From Escherichia coli (lineage in GTDB: Bacteria > Pseudomonadota > Gammaproteobacteria > Enterobacterales > Enterobacteriaceae): a stretch of DNA of 64,000 nucleotides. Of the stretch, positions 32,884 through 63,536 are shown in pieces. Under the pieces are notes generated by a model that saw only the letters and a program-made list of their open reading frames with translations, did not search any database and had not been told where the DNA came from. The stretch lies in assembly GCF_048403405.1 (NCBI RefSeq), contig NZ_CP183129.1; one strand, 5' to 3'. Every line of letters starts with the position of its first letter. Positions within the stretch are counted from its first letter, which is position 1. Both the position numbers and the translations under genes were made by a program.

Positions 32884-33038
32884 AATTGTTGTCTCTTTGA
32901 TTATGTACAATCATATGTACAAAGAAAAATTCATGCCGCTGATTGTACATTTTGGAGGTATCAGAGCATAGCAGAACATGATCAGTAGGTGTATTTGTAG
33001 CCAAAGAACATTTGTACATGCAGCAATCTTTGTTCCAT

Positions 33039-33067
33039 TGACACTGTTTATTCATACAGTTAAAAAT
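33039..33067 (+). promoter_or_regulatory. sigma70-like promoter for the dinI-like gene
   Basis: TTGACA (33039-33044), 17-bp spacer, AAAAAT (33062-33067). Confidence 0.5.
33045..33060. promoter_or_regulatory. LexA box 1 (SOS box)
   Basis: CTGTTTATTCATACAG fits CTGT-N8-ACAG; lies in promoter spacer. Confidence 0.65.
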
Positions 33068-33071
33068 AACA

Positions 33072-33087
33072 CTGTATACAAACACAG
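33072..33087. promoter_or_regulatory. LexA box 2 (SOS box)
   Basis: CTGTATACAAACACAG fits CTGT-N8-ACAG; 16 bp upstream of dinI-like ATG. Confidence 0.7.
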
Positions 33088-33102
33088 TGTAGAGGGATTT
33101 TT

Positions 33103-33351
33103 ATGCGTATTGAGATCTGCATAGCCAAAGAGAAAATGACTAAAATGCCAAACGGTGCTGTGGATGCGTTAAAGGAAGAATTAACTCGACGCATCAGTAA
33201 GCGTTATGACGATGTAGAGGTGATCGTAAAAGCCACCAGCAACGATGGCCTTTCTGTTACGCGCACCGCCGATAAAGATTCAGCTAAAACTTTTGTTCAG
33301 GAAACTCTGAAAGATACCTGGGAGTCTGCTGACGAGTGGTTTGTTCACTAA
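33103..33351 (+). CDS. DinI-family protein (prophage-borne DinI homologue)
   Basis: 82 aa [31 protein letters not shown]...[11 protein letters not shown]; C-terminal WESADxWF motif as in DinI. Confidence 0.85.
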
Positions 33352-33417
33352 TTAACACGTAAAATCGGTAACGGCTGGAAATCATTCAATACTCGCACTA
33401 TCGGAAGTTCACCAGCC

Positions 33418-33460
33418 AACCGCAGCACGTTCTTGCATACGACGTGTCTGCGGTTTTTCA
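33418..33460 (+). terminator. probable intrinsic terminator after dinI-like gene
   Basis: Imperfect stem CCGCAGCACGT...ACGTGTCTGCGG followed by TTTTTC. Confidence 0.5.
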
Positions 33461-33777
33461 ACCATTCAGATACAGCACTCTCATCACATTCATTCTTCCG
33501 CATTAAAGTATATATGACCATATCACCTTAATATTTTTCTTCTTCAGATAAAAATTGTTATCTATGTATACTTTTAAACCGAATCCGTGTAGAGTCTCTA
33601 CCTAAGTTAGTTCACAGCTACCCCTTCAGTTTGCGCCATTAACTTCCTGACTTTTGCCGCTATCTGTAAGCATTCCTGTATACCTGAAACTACAGGGTTC
33701 ATCTACGAACTTTAAGAACACCCAGGATAAAAATTGTCAACTATATTATATATAACACCATACTAATTCGAGGCTAT

Positions 33778-33891
33778 ATGGACAGCATACTGATAATCAC
33801 TTCACTACTTATCATATTCAGCATTTTTAGTCATGCTCTAATAAAATTAGGGGTTGGCATATCCAATAACCCGGACAAAACCGATGTATAA
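33778..33891 (+). CDS. unlisted 37-codon ORF encoding a hydrophobic peptide (hypothetical small membrane protein)
   Basis: GAGG 4 nt upstream of ATG; [37 protein letters not shown]: one predicted TM helix plus polar tail; too short for the ORF track. Confidence 0.35.
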
Positions 33892-33959
33892 GTCAACATA
33901 TCCTGAATCAGACATACAATATTGCAATGAAAACCAATAATATTTTAAGGAATATCTTC

Positions 33960-34193
33960 ATGAAATCAAATGACACCCTAAAGTGGTTCCCCGCGCAGCT
34001 TCCTGAAGTCAGAATTATCCTGGGAGATGCTGTCGTGGAAGTGGCAAAACAGGGAAGACCTATCAATACCAGAACATTGCTTGATTACATTGAAGGAAAC
34101 ATAAAGAAAAAGTCATGGCTGGATAACAAAGAATTATTACAAACAGCGATATCAGTTCTTAAAGACAACCAAAATTTAAATGGTAAAGTGTAA
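33960..34193 (+). CDS. YdfK/YnaE-like prophage protein (so-called cold-shock-induced family; function unknown)
   Basis: 77 aa from MKSNDTLKWFPAQLPEVRIILG..., AAGGA RBS; recalled similarity to Rac/Qin ynaE/ydfK, which sit beside pin genes. Confidence 0.6.
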   Translation: MKSNDTLKWFPAQLPEVRIILGDAVVEVAKQGRPINTRTLLDYIEGNIKKKSWLDNKELLQTAISVLKDNQNLNGKV

Positions 34194-34573
34194 TAAACAC
34201 CCCCTGAAAAATAATTTTTCAATGCATTAAAAAATATCAACAACTACGTTATTCCGCAACAACCTACTTTTTTTACCATTTTTCCACTTTAACAACTTTT
34301 TGCTCCACTTTTCCAAGACCAAACAAATTGAAATCTGGCTAAAACAACATACAACACTATTATTCGTCTTTCTCGAGTCCGCCCGGAGTTCGAAAAACAA
34401 ACCGAGTTAAAGCCATTTTTCAAAAAATCGATTTTAGGTTACACCAAAATTACGGGACTGCATCCAAATTTGTTTATTTTCGAACGTATACATACAAATA
34501 TGTGCAATAATAAGCGAAATAATTTTTGGATATGCATTATGATATGTACACCAATTTCGTATAGAGTCTCACT

Positions 34574-35164
34574 ATGTCTCGAATTTTTGCTTACTGTCGG
34601 ATATCAACTCTGGATCAGACCACCGAAAATCAACGCCGGGAAATCGAAAGTGCAGGCTTTAAAATCAAACCTCAGCAAATAATCGAAGAACACATTAGCG
34701 GCTCAGCAGCAACCAGTGAGCGTCCTGGTTTTAACCGGTTGCTTGCTCGCCTGAAATGTGGTGATCAATTGATTGTGACAAAACTGGATCGCCTTGGTTG
34801 TAATGCAATGGATATCAGGAAAACAGTGGAACAACTGACCGAAACAGGTATCAGAGTGCATTGCTTAGCATTGGGGGGCATTGACCTGACCAGTCCAACA
34901 GGAAAAATGATGATGCAAGTAATTTCAGCAGTCGCTGAATTTGAACGAGACCTTTTACTTGAACGCACTCATTCCGGGATAGTAAGAGCCCGGGGCGCAG
35001 GGAAACGTTTTGGTCGACCACCTGTGTTAAATGAAGAACAGAAACAGGTGGTATTCGAACGAATTAAGTCAGGTGTAAGTATAAGTGCCATTGCCCGGGA
35101 ATTCAAAACCTCGCGGCAAACCATTTTAAGAGCCAAAGCAAAACTTCAGACACCTGACATATAA
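34574..35164 (+). CDS. pin: serine recombinase, Pin-type DNA invertase (PinR/PinQ-like)
   Basis: 196 aa; catalytic Ser region [15 protein letters not shown] motif, C-terminal HTH. Confidence 0.88.
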
Positions 35165-35391
35165 AAAATAATCTCGGTGTGAGATGCTTTACGTCTTCCA
35201 AGCCCCCTTCCTTGCCGTAAATGGAAAGATACATCTAATTATAGAATTTATATGTTTTACCCTACGGCAGTGCTGGCCATTCAATATCCTGTGCAGTTGA
35301 CGTATCAACACGGTTCAGCAACACCCGATACTTTTTCCAGGCTTCCAGCAACGGGGTTTCTTCCTCCGTTGCATATACAGCTCACCTTTTT

Positions 35392-35688
35392 TCACCCACG
35401 ATTAACCAACAGCCAGACCAGCAGACACGCCACCACCGGCACAGCAAAATCCATCAGGCTTGCCACATCCCACACGCGCGGATCAAAACCGCCCCACCAC
35501 GGCATGTTAATCCTCTTGCCATGCCCAAACATTTCAATCCAGCGATATTCCGCCTGGGTGTGTTCACGCGCAATGAAGAACGTACAACCGGCTATCGCCC
35601 CGTAAGCCCAGTTCCCGGTAAAAAGACCAACCAGTAGCTGCGCAGCCACAGCACAAAGCGCATGAAGGAAAGGTGTTATATCCATTTT
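35392..35688 (-). CDS. small 3-TM inner-membrane protein of unknown function (prophage accessory)
   Basis: MKMDITPFLHALCAVAAQLLVGLFTG...; three hydrophobic helices; between tail-fibre module and pin. Confidence 0.55.
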   Translation of the reverse strand, partial: KMDITPFLHALCAVAAQLLVGLFTGNWAYGAIAGCTFFIAREHTQAEYRWIEMFGHGKRINMPWWGGFDPRVWDVASLMDFAVPVVACLLVWLLVNRG

Positions 35689-35727
35689 CATCCTACCCAA
35701 TAAAACGGGGCGCTCGGCCCCTTGATA

Positions 35728-36768
35728 TTATTTAGACGCAAGCGCCGCCTCAATTGCAGATAATCTTTGTCTTAATTCTGCGTTTTCTTCTTCCAGTGCT
35801 GTTATTCTGTCGTCTGACTCTCTGGCTACCTGAACAAGCAAGCCAGTAACACCAGAATAATCTACTGTGTAATAACGTTCACCTTCTTCACCTTCCGATC
35901 CGCTTGCGCCGTCCTGATATTTCATTGCGGAACCTACAACTTCTGGGATTGCTTCCAGAGCTTCCTGTGCAATGACACCAGCATAGGGCATACCGTTTTC
36001 TTTAAGCGTGTATGTATAGCCGTTCATTTTACGGATGCGGTCGGTTGCATTATCGATCACCTGAATGTTGTCTTTCAGATCCCGGTCGGAATGCTGGTTA
36101 AATGCGGTGGCATGACATGCACCATTAACGCTTAACATATAGGTGTTATCGGTATTTTTTTGCGCATAGAACATATAAGCGCCACCATCAACACCGACTT
36201 CATAAACAACAGGACGGCTGGAGTTGCCCCACAATTGAGCAGTAACACCAGCATAAGCGGTTCCCTGTGTGTTTAATGTCATGGTTGACCCATGATTGGC
36301 ATATTTGATCTGTAATGTGTCGGTGTAATCAAATTTAATAAGCGCGTTACTTCCACGCTTGCTGTATGACATAAGGCAGTTACCCATTTTGAGGTATCCG
36401 CTGTCACCGGGAAAAATCATCGTACCGCCATAAAGGTTGGTAAAGTCCCAGCAAATGTTTGTCCCGTTATCGTTCAGGTTAAGGCGCGCCATTGCGTTAC
36501 CTGGACTGTCTATCCATTTTTTGAGGTATAGTTCGCAATACGCATCCTCAACACCTGCCGTCCTGTGAGTTGAGCGGAGTTTTCTCCCAAATATAGCTCC
36601 GCTAGTTGGCAATACCTGCTGATACCATGAAGCAGACCAGTCACCAACGATTTCATCTTTGCTGTCTACATATAATTTTGTTGCGTAGCTTCCTTGATCG
36701 TTTTTTAATTTGCTAACGTCGGATTTTAGCGTTTTGATGTCATCAGGAATTACTGTCGATGTAGCCAT
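35728..36768 (-). CDS. tail-fibre/tail-spike tip protein with C-terminal intramolecular chaperone (peptidase S74-like) domain
   Basis: 346 aa; C-terminus DLKDNIQVIDNATDRIRKMNGYTYTLKENGMPYAGVIAQEALEAIPEVV... typical of auto-cleaving chaperone domains of endosialidase and T5 pb1 type fibres. Confidence 0.7.
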   Translation of the reverse strand: MATSTVIPDDIKTLKSDVSKLKNDQGSYATKLYVDSKDEIVGDWSASWYQQVLPTSGAIFGRKLRSTHRTAGVEDAYCELYLKKWIDSPGNAMARLNLNDNGTNICWDFTNLYGGTMIFPGDSGYLKMGNCLMSYSKRGSNALIKFDYTDTLQIKYANHGSTMTLNTQGTAYAGVTAQLWGNSSRPVVYEVGVDGGAYMFYAQKNTDNTYMLSVNGACHATAFNQHSDRDLKDNIQVIDNATDRIRKMNGYTYTLKENGMPYAGVIAQEALEAIPEVVGSAMKYQDGASGSEGEEGERYYTVDYSGVTGLLVQVARESDDRITALEEENAELRQRLSAIEAALASK

Positions 36769-36777
36769 TTTTCTTCC

Positions 36778-37059
36778 TCACATCCAGCCACGAAGTTGAT
36801 GCTCAACAGCAACCACGTATTCATCGAATAATGACGATATTTGCGAATCATTAATGATGCGCACGTTTACAAAATATCCGTCTTCCTTAACACATACCGG
36901 TTCGCCATCTTCAGTCAGTTCTCCGGTTTCTTTGTACACGTTACCTATCACGTCAATAAGAATATCATCCTGCATCAACTCGTCATCATAATAGCCAATG
37001 CTCTCCATAAAGGCCGAAAAGTCGGCCCTGTCGGGAAATTTGAGTGTTAAATCTTTCAT
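36778..37059 (-). CDS. hypothetical 93-aa acidic protein between fibre genes (possible fibre assembly/adaptor)
   Basis: ORF with 1-nt overlap (ATGA) with stf stop; no recognised motif. Confidence 0.45.
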   Translation of the reverse strand: MKDLTLKFPDRADFSAFMESIGYYDDELMQDDILIDVIGNVYKETGELTEDGEPVCVKEDGYFVNVRIINDSQISSLFDEYVVAVEHQLRGWM

Positions 37060-39434
37060 TAGATTGACTCCCCCACCTGAGCATCAGTCAATGCCTTGTG
37101 CCATATTCTGAAATTCCTTACATGACCAAATAAATGACGTAACCCGGCTGTAGTCTGGCCTCCAATACGGATAATTGCGGTGTTCTGAATACAGGACCAT
37201 GTGGTTTTTGTTTCGCTGGATATACGCCCGTTACTTACTGCGCATGTAGACTGATCAGACTTTACACGCATCCCCATAACCATTTTTTCAAGTGATGCAT
37301 TTTCGTTTATCCGTCTGTTAGACCCACCAATATCGCAATAAGGAAATCCGTCGTAATCTGCTGAAGAACCGAAGCCAAGAATAATAGCCGCTCCGGTTTG
37401 ATGACCGCCGGTATCAAAAACACGCGGTGCTGCATTTGGCGTTTTATACCAGTTCTTATGTACCTCACAAAGAACCGTAAAAGGAAGATTATAAAGATTA
37501 TTCTTAATGGGAACTGTGACTATATCGCTTGCGCGGGTCGCCGCCGTCGTTCCTGATATAATAAAAGATGATACACAAGGCCCATTTTCTACTTGTGGGG
37601 TGGCCAGATAAATATAGTCACCAGATACGGTTGCCCCGCCCTGCTTAGGAGAATACTGTATCTGAGAACCTATTTTTAACTCCCCATCAATTGCCTGAAT
37701 TGTTGCCTCTGCAAAAATCCATCCGATAACTTCGTCCTTTCTGACTCTCGCTGTAATCCTTGAGGCAGCGCCGCCTGTCATATTAATTTCAAGCGTTTGT
37801 GTATCAATATACACATCACCAAGAAAAGTTGTTGCGCTACCGTCATATTTATCAAATCGGATACGCAACCTTACCTGCAGTTCTGTTTTAAAACGACATG
37901 AGGTTGTCACGTATTTATTATCGCCTGAGACATCAACTGACTTTGTTGCAGCAATTGATGCCATATTAATGGCTGAGGTTTGCCCAATCAGAGAATCGTT
38001 ACAGACAAACTTTCCATAGGTAAAACCAAAACTATCCGTCCCGGTTTCGGGAACATCCATATTTGACGATCGCCCCCAACTGGCAGGGCTTTCCGAATTG
38101 AGCATGTAGTTCGTTCTTTGCCCCTCAATAAGCAGGCCATCACGTTCAAACCGTGGCTCGTCAATGGCAGCCTCTGTCAGCACACCAGATTTATTAATAT
38201 AGGTTGCTTTCGATGCGCGTTTAAACTTAACAACCTTGTCGCCAGGCATCGTTATTTCATCATCACCAATAACAATCTTTTTATATGACGGCGAAAAGCC
38301 CGTAATCATATCCAGCGAATCGTTAAATGGTATCCACACATCAGGCAGCGGCTGTAAGACATATTTATACGGCTCCGCAGCCTGGCTTGCGTACTCTCTG
38401 GCTGCATCTTCGCTTGCTTTAGCTGCCGTCTGGCTTGCTGCCGATGCTTTCGCTGAGTTCGCAGCCGCTGTTTCGCTCACCTTTGCGTTGGTTTCACTGG
38501 TTTTTGCTGCTTTTTGACTGTTAGCTGATGCAGTGGCAGAAGCAGCAGCCGCGCTTGCAGAACCAGCTGCAGCACTCTCGCTTTCGGCTGCTGCATCCTG
38601 ACTGCTTTTCGCCGCAGTTTCGCTGGCTTTGGCATTCGTTTCGCTGGTCTTCGCTGCCGTCTGGCTGGACTTTGCGTTAGTTTCACTCGTCTTCGCTGCT
38701 TTCTGACTGTTAGCCGCAGCAGTTGCTGATCCAGCAGCTGAAGTCGCAGAACCGGCTGCCGCGCTCTCGCTTTCGGCTGCTGCATCCTGACTGCTTTTCG
38801 CCGCAGTTTCACTGGCTTTGGCATTCGTTTCGCTGGTTTTCGCTGCCGTCTGGCTGGACTTTGCGTTGGTTTCGCTCGTCTTTGCGGCTGTCTCGCTATT
38901 TTTCGCGTTGGTTTCTGATTTTTTGGCTGCTGTCGCGGAGTTTTCTGATGCAGTCTGTGAGGTCGCTGCCGCCTGTGCACTATTAGCTGCATTCGTTTCT
39001 GAGGTTTTCGCCGCGTTCTTCGATGATGCCGCTGCAGTTTCGGATTTCTTTGCCGCCGCTGCGCTCTGAGAGGCGGCTTCGGCGTTGCGTGCCGCTTCTT
39101 CCACCATTTCCTCAAAACGACGCAATGCCTCCGGCATGACATCATCTTCCGTCATGGCACCGAGAAAATCATTCAGCGTACCTGGTCTGGAACCTTCATA
39201 GACGGTAATGGTTCCGGCATGTGAAGGCGGAAAACCTTCAACAAGCAGGATAACGCTGTACTGGCCATACTCAACATCCATGCTGTAACGCCCGGCTTCA
39301 TCCGGATTTTCAGAGGCCACCGTGTTCACCAGTACCGTGGTGCTGTTACGCTTTGCCTTCAGTTGAATAGTGCAGTTCTGTATTGGTTTTCCCGCACCAT
39401 CTTTCAGCACACCTGAGATTTTTACTGCTGCCAT
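37059..39434 (-). CDS. stf: side tail fibre protein Stf (lambda-type N-terminus, divergent C-terminal receptor-binding part)
   Basis: N-terminus MAAVKISGVLKDGAGKPIQNCTIQLKAKRNSTTV... matches lambda Stf; Ala/Ser/Thr/Lys-rich repeats; C-terminal part resembles a lectin/LamG-like domain. Confidence 0.85.
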   Translation of the reverse strand: MAAVKISGVLKDGAGKPIQNCTIQLKAKRNSTTVLVNTVASENPDEAGRYSMDVEYGQYSVILLVEGFPPSHAGTITVYEGSRPGTLNDFLGAMTEDDVMPEALRRFEEMVEEAARNAEAASQSAAAAKKSETAAASSKNAAKTSETNAANSAQAAATSQTASENSATAAKKSETNAKNSETAAKTSETNAKSSQTAAKTSETNAKASETAAKSSQDAAAESESAAAGSATSAAGSATAAANSQKAAKTSETNAKSSQTAAKTSETNAKASETAAKSSQDAAAESESAAAGSASAAAASATASANSQKAAKTSETNAKVSETAAANSAKASAASQTAAKASEDAAREYASQAAEPYKYVLQPLPDVWIPFNDSLDMITGFSPSYKKIVIGDDEITMPGDKVVKFKRASKATYINKSGVLTEAAIDEPRFERDGLLIEGQRTNYMLNSESPASWGRSSNMDVPETGTDSFGFTYGKFVCNDSLIGQTSAINMASIAATKSVDVSGDNKYVTTSCRFKTELQVRLRIRFDKYDGSATTFLGDVYIDTQTLEINMTGGAASRITARVRKDEVIGWIFAEATIQAIDGELKIGSQIQYSPKQGGATVSGDYIYLATPQVENGPCVSSFIISGTTAATRASDIVTVPIKNNLYNLPFTVLCEVHKNWYKTPNAAPRVFDTGGHQTGAAIILGFGSSADYDGFPYCDIGGSNRRINENASLEKMVMGMRVKSDQSTCAVSNGRISSETKTTWSCIQNTAIIRIGGQTTAGLRHLFGHVRNFRIWHKALTDAQVGESI
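38560..38890. repeat. tandem duplication (about 186-bp unit) inside stf coding region
   Basis: Near-identical DNA blocks ...CTCGCTTTCGGCTGCTGCATCCTGACTGCTTTTCGCCGCAGTTTC... at about 38562-38700 and 38748-38890; protein repeat SETNAKSSQTAAKTSETNAKASETAAKSSQDAAAESESAAAGSA occurs twice. Confidence 0.8.
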
Positions 39435-39498
39435 ATCCACTCCACAAAAAAGCCCGCCTGAACCGGCGGGCTGTCATAACACTGTGTTACCTGGCTAA

Positions 39499-40098
39499 TC
39501 AGAATTTATAACCGACACCCACGATGAAACCGTCAGTGCGCCAGTCACCACTGCCGGAACCTTCATAAGCAAGGTCAATGGCCACGGATTCGGTCGGGTT
39601 AAACTGCACGCCAGCCCCCCACGCCAGAGACGTGTTGCTGTGGCGACCGTCATCACTTCCGGTCAGCACATCGTGCGTTTTCCCCTTGTTGTCAGTTACG
39701 CGGAGATAATCCCCGGAGAAGGTCGACACACGGCTGTAAGCCATACCCGCCATCGCATAAGCACTGAACCATTCATTCACGCGTACAGATGGCCCCGCCA
39801 TCATGCTGAACCAGCGGTTACGCACGGAATCTTCATGCCAGCGGGTATCGCTGTAATGCGTTTTTTGCTCATCTTTGGCATTGGCATAACTGAATGACGT
39901 CACCAGCCCCAGCGTGTCCGTAAATTCATAACGGTATTTCACGTTAATGCCCTTCAGGTCATCACTGCCTGGCATATCAGTATGGGTCTGAAGATACCCG
40001 GCGCTTAGTGTGGACTGATGCTCTGCTGCGCTCGCTGGCGTACCAGCGGCAACCAGCCAGACTACTGCGGACAGAATAACAGCACATAATTTACGCAT
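39499..40098 (-). CDS. lom: Lom outer-membrane protein (Ail/Lom family)
   Basis: 199 aa, signal peptide, beta-barrel ending ...GFIVGVGYKF; position between J and stf as in lambda. Confidence 0.88.
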   Translation of the reverse strand: MRKLCAVILSAVVWLVAAGTPASAAEHQSTLSAGYLQTHTDMPGSDDLKGINVKYRYEFTDTLGLVTSFSYANAKDEQKTHYSDTRWHEDSVRNRWFSMMAGPSVRVNEWFSAYAMAGMAYSRVSTFSGDYLRVTDNKGKTHDVLTGSDDGRHSNTSLAWGAGVQFNPTESVAIDLAYEGSGSGDWRTDGFIVGVGYKF

Positions 40099-40165
40099 AA
40101 TTACCTCTCGCTTTTCTGCAATAAAAAAGGCGTCATTTCTGACGCCCGTATTGGGGTTATAAAAT

Positions 40166-43100
40166 TCAGCTGATACTGATGCCTGCGGTGGCTTTCTTCA
40201 TCACCACAACCAGCAAATCGCTGATACTTGCTGTGGGATACCAGTCATTTACCAGCCATGCTGACACCGAAAACTCCAGCGTCATGTGACCGTGACCGGC
40301 AGGCATATCAATAACGCCACTGTAAATCAGCGTATTATCCAGCGCGGTACGGTTATAAATTTCAGCACCGTTTTTCCGCACTATCAGACGGCATGAGGAG
40401 TAAATATCAGTATGCTCTCTCTCATGTTTAGCGCCGCTGAATGCCACCGCCGGAATAACAATCTGCCGGTCAAACGGCTGATCGTCATAAATCCTGACGG
40501 TAATGGTCCCTGATGGCCACCGTTCCGGTGCACGGGAGTCCCGGGGGAAAGCTTTGCCCACTGTTTTAACGAGATCGCCTTCAATCTGGTTCGCGGACAG
40601 TTTTCCCAGAACCCGGCAGTTCTCGTTAATCGTGACGTTGTTGAGCGTCCCGGAGTTCGCATTCACGTTACCGCTGATATCGGCATTTTTCGCCGTCAGC
40701 CGCCCGTCCGGTGTCAGGGAAAATGCCGGAGGATTACCGCCGCTGGTAATGGTGGGAGCCGTCAGATATTTCAGGAACACTTCATTCATAAATATCTGAT
40801 CGCCCTGACCAACAAACATCGGCTTTGTGTTGCCATTCGCAGGATTAACCATCGCAATCCTGTCCGCCGCCAGCAGCACCTGACTCTGCATACCGTCAGG
40901 AGTATTCTCAATACCGGCACCAATACCCGCGATATAAAGGCGTCCGTCCTGCATCTGCTGCAGCTTCACAGCCCACATGCTGTTCAGGTTATTATTTGTA
41001 TCAACCTGAACCTTCTGTATCTGCTGAATTACCGCACTCTGGTCTTCCAGTTTATTATTGACGGTCTGCGTGATTTCATTGCTGACATCCGTAATGGACG
41101 TCCTGATTTCAGCCAGGTCAGGCGCAAGCTGACCGTTATCAATCTGCGTCCACAGCTCCTGAGCCAGATGGCTTTTCCCTATCTCGCCTTTGAAAAAATC
41201 CAGATAGCCGGATGCATCATCACTCGGCTGGCCAACAGCCTCCACAAATGCCGATTTGCCAACGGTGTTCACACTGCGGATGTAAAAATAATAATCATGG
41301 CCCGGTTTGATATTGATACTGGTGGCTATCCAGTACAGCGCCGTGCCAAGATAGCGGGCTGTGGTTTCAACCTGCCTGATATCGGTAATCCGCGTTTCCG
41401 AGAACCAGAACTCAAACTGTACCGTCGGATCATAAACCGCAAGATGCGGCGTGGCAGTTATCTGAAAATAGCCCGGCGTCAGCTCAATCCGCGACGGCGC
41501 TGCCGGTGCGGCAATCCGGAACGATACCGATGCCGGATCGCCCTGCTGTCCCCACGCATTTACCGCCCGGACCGTCAGCGTGTAACGCCCCAGCGCCAGT
41601 TGCCTGAAGCGGTATGTGGTTTCCGTCGTCCTGGCCGTGCTGACCAGCCGCTCACTGCCGTCGTCCGCTGCCACGGTCAGGCGAAGCAGGAAGCTCACGC
41701 CCTTCACCACCTTCGGCGTGTCCCAGCGGGCCAGTACCTGATACTCCCCGCTGTCTGCGGTGACTTCGGCAGTCAGGTGCTGCACCGCTGGCGGCGTGAC
41801 ACCATTCACCGTGCCGCTCTGGTCACCGTCAAAGTGCGCCCCGTTATCCACGATGGCTTCTTTCTCCGGTACATGCTGCACGGCGGTGATGGCATACGTG
41901 CCATCGTCGTTCTCACGGATACTCACACAGCGGAACAGGCGCTGGCGCAGCGTCGGCAGCTTCAGCCCCCATACGCTGTATTCAGCAACACTGTCAGGAA
42001 CACGGCTCACTTTTACCTTCACGCCGTCGGTGACGGACTGAACCTCCACGCTGACCGGATTGCCACTTCCGTCAACCAGGCTTATCAGCGTGGTACCGGA
42101 GGATGGCAGCGTGATTTCACGGTCGAGCGTCAGCGTCCGGGTCTGGCTGTTCACCGCCAGTACACGACCACCGGTGCTGATACCGGCATAGTCATCATCA
42201 CAGATTTCAATAACATCGCCCGGTACATGGCGAAGCCCTTCTGCGCCGACGCTGAAATCCACGGTCTGCGTTTCCAGCAGTTCCGTTTTAATCAGCCACA
42301 GCCCGGCGCGGTGTGCCTGCCCCCGGCTGGTACAGCCAAAGGCATCCATCTTCGTGACGTTACGACCGTAACGGGCAATGGCCTGCGTGTCCTCCACAAG
42401 CTCTGTCGCCGTCTCCCAGCCGTTGTTCGGGTCAATCCAGTTCACCTCAACGGCATTATGGCGGTCCTTCAGGGCGCTGAAGCTGTAGCGGAACGGCGCG
42501 CCATCATCCGGCATCACCACATTACTGCGGTTATAGGTCCACACCTTATCCGACGGTCGGTCCTGCACGAATGTCAGCGTCTGCCCGTTCCATACCGGCA
42601 TACAGCGCATCGCCGAGCAGAAATCACTGAGCACATCCCACGCCTTGCGCTGTGTGGCCAGGTACGCATTACAGGTGATGCGCGGCTCCGTGCCGCCAAA
42701 ACCATCCGGCACCGACTGGTCGCAATACTGGCTGATGACATACAGCGCCCATTTATCCACATCTGCCGCACCAAGACGTTTCCCCATGCCGTAGCGCGGA
42801 TGGGTCAGCATATCCCACAGACACCAGGCCATGTTGTTGCTGTATGCTGGCTTAAACGTTCCGTCCCAGATACCGCTGTATTGCCGCGTCTGCGGGTTAT
42901 AGTTCGACGGCACCTGCAGAATGCGCCCGCGAAGATGATAATTACGGCTCACCTGCTGGCTGCCGAACTGCTCCGAATCCACCTGCACGCCGACCAGTGC
43001 CGTGTTCGGGTAGCACTGTTTCACATCGATGATTTCGGTGTATGACGACCAGAGCGTTTTGTTCTGCAGCTGGTCTGTGGTGCTGTCCGGCGTCATTCTG

Positions 43101-62508: not shown

Positions 62509-63536
<1,028 letters not shown>

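Follow-up and report, generated by a model that had tools for sequence, protein, structure and literature searches.

A small three-helix membrane protein linked to phage receptor-binding genes and to capsule loci

What might a small membrane protein encoded directly beside the tail-fibre genes of a prophage do? The question is raised by a 97-aa open reading frame (ORF) in the window, by which we mean the whole 64,000-nt stretch of Escherichia coli DNA analysed here. A preliminary description had pointed to superinfection exclusion or receptor modification, two roles often played by small inner-membrane proteins encoded next to phage receptor-binding genes.

The gene and its prophage neighbourhood

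By the ORF list and the translation, the reading frame lies on the minus strand at 35392-35685, begins MDITPFL, and ends in a stop codon at 35392-35394. It encodes a three-helix inner-membrane protein catalogued as WP_001306187.1 ('hypothetical protein') and as phrog_1443 or 'Ybl63'. The preliminary description had left the strand unnamed and had given the span as 35392-35688. Its ORF and frame were borne out, and its upper end lies 3 nt beyond the start codon: translation of 35392-35688 gives KMDITPF...NRG*, with position 35688 in frame and no start codon there. Two ATGs are candidates for initiation, one at 35691 (MKMDIT) and one at 35685 (MDIT). The second is the RefSeq start of the identical CFT073 gene WP_001306187.1, its equivalent is the start in the phage 21 annotation, and the phrog_1443 profile also starts at this Met. 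A Shine-Dalgarno-like AGGA read from the sequence (35691-35694, minus strand) is separated from the ATG at 35685 by a 5-nt spacer and overlaps the alternative ATG (35691-35689); the phage 21 annotation has a ribosome-binding site at the equivalent position. Antisense to the gene is a low-complexity, Pro/Thr/His-rich ORF of 117 aa (35252-35605, plus strand), which carries no RefSeq annotation and is most likely a shadow ORF.

The claim that this is a protein with three transmembrane (TM) helices was upheld by two methods. A Kyte-Doolittle scan found three hydrophobic segments (about residues 3-23, 26-40, and 74-95), and an AF2 model computed with a 65-sequence alignment contained three long helices (4-23, 26-53, and 74-96; mean pLDDT 97.9, pTM 0.83).

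The locus is a lambdoid prophage adjoining ssrA, and a 501-bp stretch around the membrane gene is shared at 100% identity with CFT073 and several further E. coli chromosomes. Read along the minus strand, the genes are J, lom, stf, a 93-aa ORF, a 346-aa distal fibre gene, the membrane gene, and a 3' fragment of tfa. The first gene of the fibre module, stf (37059-39440, minus strand), encodes the 793-aa side tail fibre Stf (phrog_1419, full length) and is followed by the 93-aa ORF of unknown function (36778-37059, minus strand; phrog_1361). The immediate upstream neighbour of the membrane gene encodes the 346-aa distal tail-fibre protein (35728-36768, minus strand; phrog_4563 'tail fiber protein', E=1e-220). 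The C-terminal residues 215-327 of this protein match the distal subunit of the phage S16 long tail fibre (6f45) at its chaperone-bearing end, and a locally built HMM detected a C-terminal intramolecular-chaperone domain of the S74 type. The membrane gene begins 42 nt downstream of this last tail-fibre gene, and its placement adjacent to a tail-fibre module was therefore correctly described.

The stf gene at 37059-39440 is intact in the window, and that of CFT073 is split and carries an IS200C insertion; the window thus derives from a CFT073-like strain and not from CFT073. Within the KTSETNAK-repeat region of the window gene, about 189 nt are duplicated, with the same repeat arm at 38652 and 38841. 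In lambdoid forms of the cassette the phrog_1361 ORF always separates stf from the distal fibre gene, and in phage 21 an ORF of this type directly precedes the membrane gene.

Between the fibre and membrane genes (35707-35721, minus strand), a terminator scan identified GGGGCCGAGCGCCCC, a GC-rich hairpin that has a weak T-tract. This hairpin is possibly a leaky terminator, after which a promoter would not fit. It is missing from sister loci in which the gap between fibre and membrane genes is 10-13 nt, and a promoter scan at the membrane gene returned no signal exceeding shuffle expectation. Just downstream of the membrane gene is the 3' remnant of tfa (35262-35372, minus strand; coordinates converted from L001), a RefSeq pseudogene annotated as 'tail fiber assembly protein, missing N-terminus'. 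It marks a recombination scar at which the present cassette replaced an older stf-tfa module. Beyond it lies a gene for a Pin/Gin-type DNA invertase (34574-35164, plus strand; phrog_125, E=7e-69), around which no inverted-repeat crossover sites were detected within 33000-40200. The segment that this enzyme would invert seems to have been lost, and the tfa fragment and the intact invertase look like the relic of an invertible fibre switch overwritten by an incoming fibre cassette. The stretch from ssrA to the invertase (33103-34193, plus strand) contains small prophage-end genes, named here by the CFT073 annotation: a frameshifted DinI-like gene, a gene for a YnaM/YnfT-family peptide, and a cold-shock-like ydfK.

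A conserved family that follows phage receptor-binding genes

The window protein is a typical member of phrog_1443, matching the profile with residues 2-97 (profile positions 1-96 of 97, E=9.7e-59), and AFDB models with the same fold (TM 0.96) are named Ybl63; no difference from either was noted. The phage 21 homologue CPT_21_24, a 'putative membrane protein', is 95% identical to it. Among 1.84 billion representative proteins searched, the family comprises 336 clusters at 50% identity (E<=1e-3), almost all of them 90-110 aa long, while an indexed search gave 585 matches, all unnamed or 'hypothetical'. Among the cluster names surveyed, none went beyond 'hypothetical protein' and 'Ybl63'. The gene is carried by 1,906 of 5,426 complete E. 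coli genomes (35%), with a median of two copies, and is annotated in all of them as 'hypothetical protein'. For 16 distinct E. coli-type alleles the median dN was 0.018, the median dS 0.150, and the median dN/dS 0.12, a ratio by which the membrane gene is judged to be under purifying selection. Because nearly all 336 clusters fall within 90-110 aa and the E. coli copies have this low ratio, sequence comparison confirms a genuine gene and excludes a chance ORF.

Conservation within the family is concentrated in a small set of positions. Among 301 unique members, H8, R40, E41, Q44, A45, E46, R48, W72, and P83 are 92-99% conserved, and R58, D79, Y47, I50, P62, and W63 are 76-90% conserved. The window protein has every signature residue (H8, R40-E41, Q44-A45-E46-Y47-R48, W72, D79, and P83). 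A literature search did not find the name 'Ybl63', and topical searches likewise gave no matter on the family. The gene is catalogued already, as phrog_1443 and 'Ybl63', though uncharacterised, and the link to capsule loci presented below was not found described in the literature searched.

We searched 50,697 phage records by tblastn. The 70 matches were mostly from lambda-like coliphages, including phage 21, with others from P22-like coliphages and Aeromonas phages. The phage 21 order is J, stf, a 92-aa ORF, and then the homologue. A P22-like phage has tailspike, O-acetylase, a fibre-gene fragment, the homologue, and int, and the homologue is thereby part of the conversion locus, near the O-acetylase and int. 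In P2/HP1-like prophages of Aeromonas and Leclercia, the start of the homologue overlaps the tail-fibre stop and further tail genes follow, and a Comamonas prophage has the homologue flanked by a giant J-like protein on one side and by holin- and endolysin-like genes on the other.

Homologue loci were also retrieved with a degenerate DNA pattern for QAEYRWI, which recovered 120 viral contigs with a true homologue in each, grouped into 55 clusters at 80% identity. The upstream gene was on the same strand in 49 of these 55 clusters, at a median distance of -1 nt; the gap was 30 nt or less in 39 of the 49 and zero or negative in 29. PHROG annotation classed 25 of 30 representative upstream proteins as tail fibres, tailspikes, or tail proteins, and this association spans siphoviruses, myoviruses, and podoviruses (lambdoid, P2/HP1-like, and P22-like). 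The implication of the preliminary description that proximity to receptor-binding genes is meaningful is thus strongly supported. Linkage to receptor-binding genes recurs at identities as low as about 31%. Pfam domains in 42 upstream proteins included Peptidase_S74, pectate-lyase-like, endosialidase, Tail_spike_N, P22 head-binding, T7 fibre, Collar, and GDSL. Many of these proteins carry domains that degrade or bind glycans, among them the Peptidase_S74, pectate-lyase-like, endosialidase, and GDSL domains. An exclusive tie to fibres with an S74 chaperone was considered and rejected, with S74 present in only about 9 of the 42 representative upstream proteins and many receptor-binding types of other kinds among them.

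Downstream genes are heterogeneous, consisting of holin and endolysin in some phages and of a UmuD-like moron, tail or connector genes, or an opposite-strand int in others, and the upstream receptor-binding gene is therefore the common denominator. Within the one cluster, formed at 80% identity or more, to which the window protein belongs, the upstream genes fall into at least 10 unrelated clusters, so the membrane protein is not matched to one receptor specificity. Some phage copies depart from the pattern, as in 235-kb Aeromonas phages such as the jumbo phage AVP1 (L006, 3917-4180), where the gene follows the large terminase. In a group of 47-kb to 73-kb coliphages and Salmonella phages (HC6, ST1UNAM, PBM-2, and HC8A), residues 41-94 match DNA that has no annotated gene.

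The P22-like Escherichia phage vB_EcoP-611R6 offers a view of how the gene may move. A fragment encoding 37 aa of a 'tail fiber protein' (L003, 3845-3958) immediately precedes the homologue and itself comes after the genes for the tailspike and the OafA O-acetylase. The membrane gene of this phage seems to have arrived with the 3' end of a foreign fibre gene, and we regard the fragment as direct evidence of cassette transfer between morphotypes.

A position directly after a receptor-binding gene could also suit a membrane-associated chaperone that takes the place of Tfa in the maturation or assembly of the fibre or spike. The gene fills the usual tfa slot right after the fibre gene with a tfa remnant adjoining, is translationally coupled to the receptor-binding gene, and is often paired with fibres that bear their own S74 chaperone domain. 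However, fibre assembly is cytoplasmic, whereas the protein is almost wholly membrane-buried or predicted to be periplasmic, and structurally unrelated receptor-binding proteins precede the same membrane protein. The window protein also shows no similarity to the Caudo_TAP (Tfa) domain in Pfam and has three TM helices where Tfa is soluble, and its chromosomal homologues have no phage partner. We consider a chaperone role quite improbable.

Chromosomal homologues and capsule loci

Homologues outside phage records were sought by scanning one genome per species (298 Gb) with the QAEYRWI pattern and filtering the matches with the family HMM; the number of chance matches for 298 Gb was estimated from the information content of the pattern. 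True homologues were found at 65 of the 120 loci, the rest being chance matches. Most true matches are in Sphingomonadales, with others in Aeromonas, Comamonas, Acidovorax, Halomonas, Devosia, Desulfovibrio, Pantoea, Leclercia, and E. coli. The sphingomonad sequences form a single clade, 46-54% identical to the window protein. In this order the homologue directly follows a KpsS-like gene in nine loci (NF050054, E about 1e-78) and a Wza/KpsD-type polysaccharide-export gene in five, and it is flanked by genes for sugar epimerases and glycosyltransferases. In Aurantiacibacter xanthus, database gene calls place it inside a complete Kdo-linker capsule locus, with the order glycosyltransferases, Epimerase_2, UDPG_MGDP_dh, Poly_export, homologue (17-nt gap), PhyH, KdsA, KpsF, KpsU, and Capsule_synth. 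The same type of capsule locus surrounds the homologue in a genome of Devosia, which belongs to a separate order.

The likeness to group-2-type kps loci is that these chromosomal members are in an operon with kpsS- or kpsD-like genes, alongside kdsA, kpsF, kpsU, and kpsC/S. Such a position was seen for the Sphingomonadales and Devosia homologues, while the window gene itself is in a prophage and E. coli phage copies are also found in hosts that lack kps. The described E. coli Kps machinery is not known to include a small three-TM component. The hosts of phage 21 and lambda-like phages (K-12 and C) do not have a kps capsule, and for this reason the phage copy cannot depend on Kps proteins.

Other chromosomal copies stand alone. 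One in Novosphingobium is located between a cyclophilin gene and gltX, and one in Aeromonas rivipollensis (L008, 6001-6309), 58% identical to the E. coli phage protein, is beside pirin. The Aeromonas stand-alone homologue looks like a core gene and not a prophage gene. A polB gene and two lipid A acyltransferase genes are near the A. rivipollensis copy, and ORF sizes suggest the same position in A. media (L148). Clear homology to a housekeeping membrane protein had been set against the proposed phage roles from the outset. Copies outside prophages were indeed seen, both in capsule loci and in Aeromonas and Novosphingobium. These are equally uncharacterised, however, and they refine the original idea without killing it.

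The stand-alone copies bear on whether the gene has any role at a phage receptor. It could instead encode a host-type membrane protein of general physiology, serving in ion or stress homeostasis or membrane maintenance, and ride in phages as a recombination boundary. The conserved positions of the Aeromonas and Novosphingobium copies, the high conservation of the E. coli protein beside very mosaic upstream genes, and the adjoining tfa scar are all consistent with a passenger of this kind. Against it, linkage to receptor-binding genes is found in three morphotypes and in distant hosts, at about 31% identity, well under what homologous recombination needs, and the capsule-locus association recurs in two alphaproteobacterial orders. 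We regard a passenger as unlikely. Because of the linkage to phage fibres and the copies in capsule loci, the protein probably acts on surface sugar polymers and is probably not a random passenger.

Topology, known systems, and a candidate role

The orientation of the protein in the membrane bears on what it could contact. A raw K+R count places more positive charge on the side of the N-terminus and the second loop, and on that count the conserved 33-residue loop was first called cytoplasmic; the call was revised given basic C-tails and acidic N-tails across the family. C-tails of at least 8 aa are strongly basic (K+R 2.0-4.0 versus D+E 0.4-1.4). N-tails carry a net acidic charge (K+R 0.27 versus D+E 0.82) and are short; of 189 database gene calls, 132 have an N-tail of no more than 8 aa. 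Because of these tails an N-out/C-in topology is favoured, with about two-thirds confidence, against the opposing raw K+R count. In this orientation H8, R40-E41, Q44, E46, R48, R58, W72, and D79 would be at the periplasmic leaflet, and these conserved residues, E41 among them, are predicted to cluster on the periplasm-facing side. Arg and His at the periplasmic face are typical of proteins that handle polyprenyl-PP-linked glycans, such as those of the WaaL/Wzy type.

No characterised match to the window protein was found in Pfam, NCBIfam, a PDB sequence search, or three fold searches. Models of anti-phage defence in PADLOC gave 0 families at E<=0.1, and a PHROG scan at E<=1 gave unknown-function families only, with no exclusion family among them. 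These results agree with the earlier remark that the protein has no motif that can be named. Proteins of its likeliest kind, accessory envelope proteins encoded in linkage with a receptor-binding gene, are already known, and neither its sequence nor its fold matches that of a known protein for exclusion, conversion, lysis, or capsule.

Superinfection exclusion by an inner-membrane block of DNA translocation, as by SieA, T4 Imm, or HK97 gp15, was one of the roles originally proposed. [quoted passage not shown] The window protein belongs to the same general class of small phage-encoded integral inner-membrane proteins with three TM helices, the end of a late operon is a common position for accessory genes, and the gene is very frequent in E. 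coli prophages. It is 97 aa long, however, and the SieA motif is absent from its sequence; no separate promoter serves the gene, which is coupled to late receptor-binding and structural genes. The same protein comes after at least 10 unrelated receptor-binding proteins. The phages that carry the gene differ widely in their DNA-delivery machinery, and homologues in capsule loci or at core-like positions in Aeromonas make no sense for a blocker of DNA entry. With no similarity to an annotated exclusion family in the PHROG and PADLOC scans, exclusion in the SieA/Imm sense gains no specific support, and we think it improbable.

A late role in lysis (holin, antiholin, or lysis modulator) is suggested by the resemblance to class I holins such as lambda S105, which extends to size, three TM helices, the inferred N-out/C-in topology, and a basic C-terminus. 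In a minority of other phages the homologue does have lysis genes after it, a holin and an endolysin coming next at loci L108, L070, and L007. No holin family of Pfam or PHROG matches the window protein, and 1 of 65 family members gave a weak match to Phage_holin_8 (3.6e-3). In the present prophage, however, the endolysin (63006-63536) and Rz (62512-63006) genes are 27 kb from the membrane gene, which sits outside the lysis cassette, and P2-like and P22-like phages place the gene among tail genes or by int. A 33-residue loop containing invariant residues is also foreign to holins, which do not retain about 50% identity from one proteobacterial class to another, and the chromosomal copies in capsule loci would be lethal as holins. 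A holin-like role is accordingly very doubtful. By weight, the alternatives rank in the order SieA-like blocker, passenger or recombination boundary, fibre-assembly helper, and holin-like function.

Two groups of small envelope proteins provide closer parallels in genetic organisation. Llp of T5 and Cor of phi80 and N15 are encoded beside a receptor-binding gene, and the window gene shares this genetic logic. Llp and Cor are outer-membrane lipoproteins specific for FhuA, whereas the window protein is polytopic, is not tied to one receptor-binding type, and has no lipobox: the pattern [LVI][ASTVI][GAS]C was not found, the only early Cys (C11) comes after H-A-L, and this column is Cys in just 15% of family members. 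The second group comprises D3 Iap, the epsilon15 polymerase inhibitor, and GtrA, which are small, hydrophobic, encoded near the tailspike, and alter O-antigen assembly at the inner membrane. The likeness to these serotype-conversion proteins lies in the P22-like phage that carries the homologue in the same conversion locus, by the O-acetylase. There is no sequence relationship, since neither the window protein nor 65 members had a Pfam match to GtrA (PF04138) or an SMR-type domain, and its three helices differ from the four TM helices of GtrA-like and small glycan-flippase subunits. Serotype-conversion proteins are specific to host or serotype, whereas the window family is conserved across proteobacterial classes with invariant polar residues.

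From the sequence comparisons and the structural model, the reading that we tentatively favour is that the protein may be an inner-membrane factor that acts on the assembly or export of lipid-linked surface glycans and is carried by phages with their receptor-binding cassette. The comparisons show a membrane protein under purifying selection whose gene is linked to receptor-binding genes and to capsule loci. In this reading its invariant polar and aromatic residues would cluster at the periplasmic face, and its gene is the conserved last member of a mobile cassette for a receptor-binding protein, taken to be co-transcribed with the fibre or spike gene. Its target would be the assembly or export of lipid-linked surface polysaccharide (capsule, O-antigen, or LPS) at the inner membrane, where it could bind either a pathway intermediate or some conserved element of the machinery. 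The outcome would be an altered surface of infected or lysogenic cells, as seen by phages that recognise these glycans with their fibres and spikes, and the phage might benefit either from receptor alteration in lysogens and infected cells or from protection of its progeny. The receptor modification that had been suggested from the sequence is partly supported, with indirect support from the chromosomal homologues in kps-type loci.

Several observations weigh against this favoured glycan role. The protein has no homology to any characterised protein, and in phages the gene is tied to late genes and usually has no separate promoter, an uncommon arrangement for lysogenic conversion. Near-identical copies after at least 10 unrelated receptor-binding proteins mean that the protein cannot be a receptor-specific mask. 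The stand-alone copies of Aeromonas and Novosphingobium lie outside glycan loci, and a few phage copies do not adjoin receptor-binding genes. A more specific version, in which the family is an unrecognised small component of Kdo-linked capsule or surface-glycan biogenesis that all three morphotypes captured as the fixed last gene of exchangeable receptor-binding cassettes, to remodel or shut down the glycan layer recognised by their own fibres and depolymerase spikes, is a speculative possibility that we hold with still less confidence.

The small size of the protein, its mutable invariant residues, and its two independent contexts in phages and capsule loci make the question directly testable. 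If the more specific version is true, the family would be a generic, receptor-independent phage tool for controlling the host sugar coat, present in a third of E. coli genomes. The gene travels with those genes of temperate phages that matter most for host range. If the protein alters capsule or LPS display, it would be a widespread, unseen contributor to phage resistance between lysogens, to the variation of surface antigens among pathogenic E. coli, for example in the CFT073 lineage, and to capsule assembly in Alphaproteobacteria.
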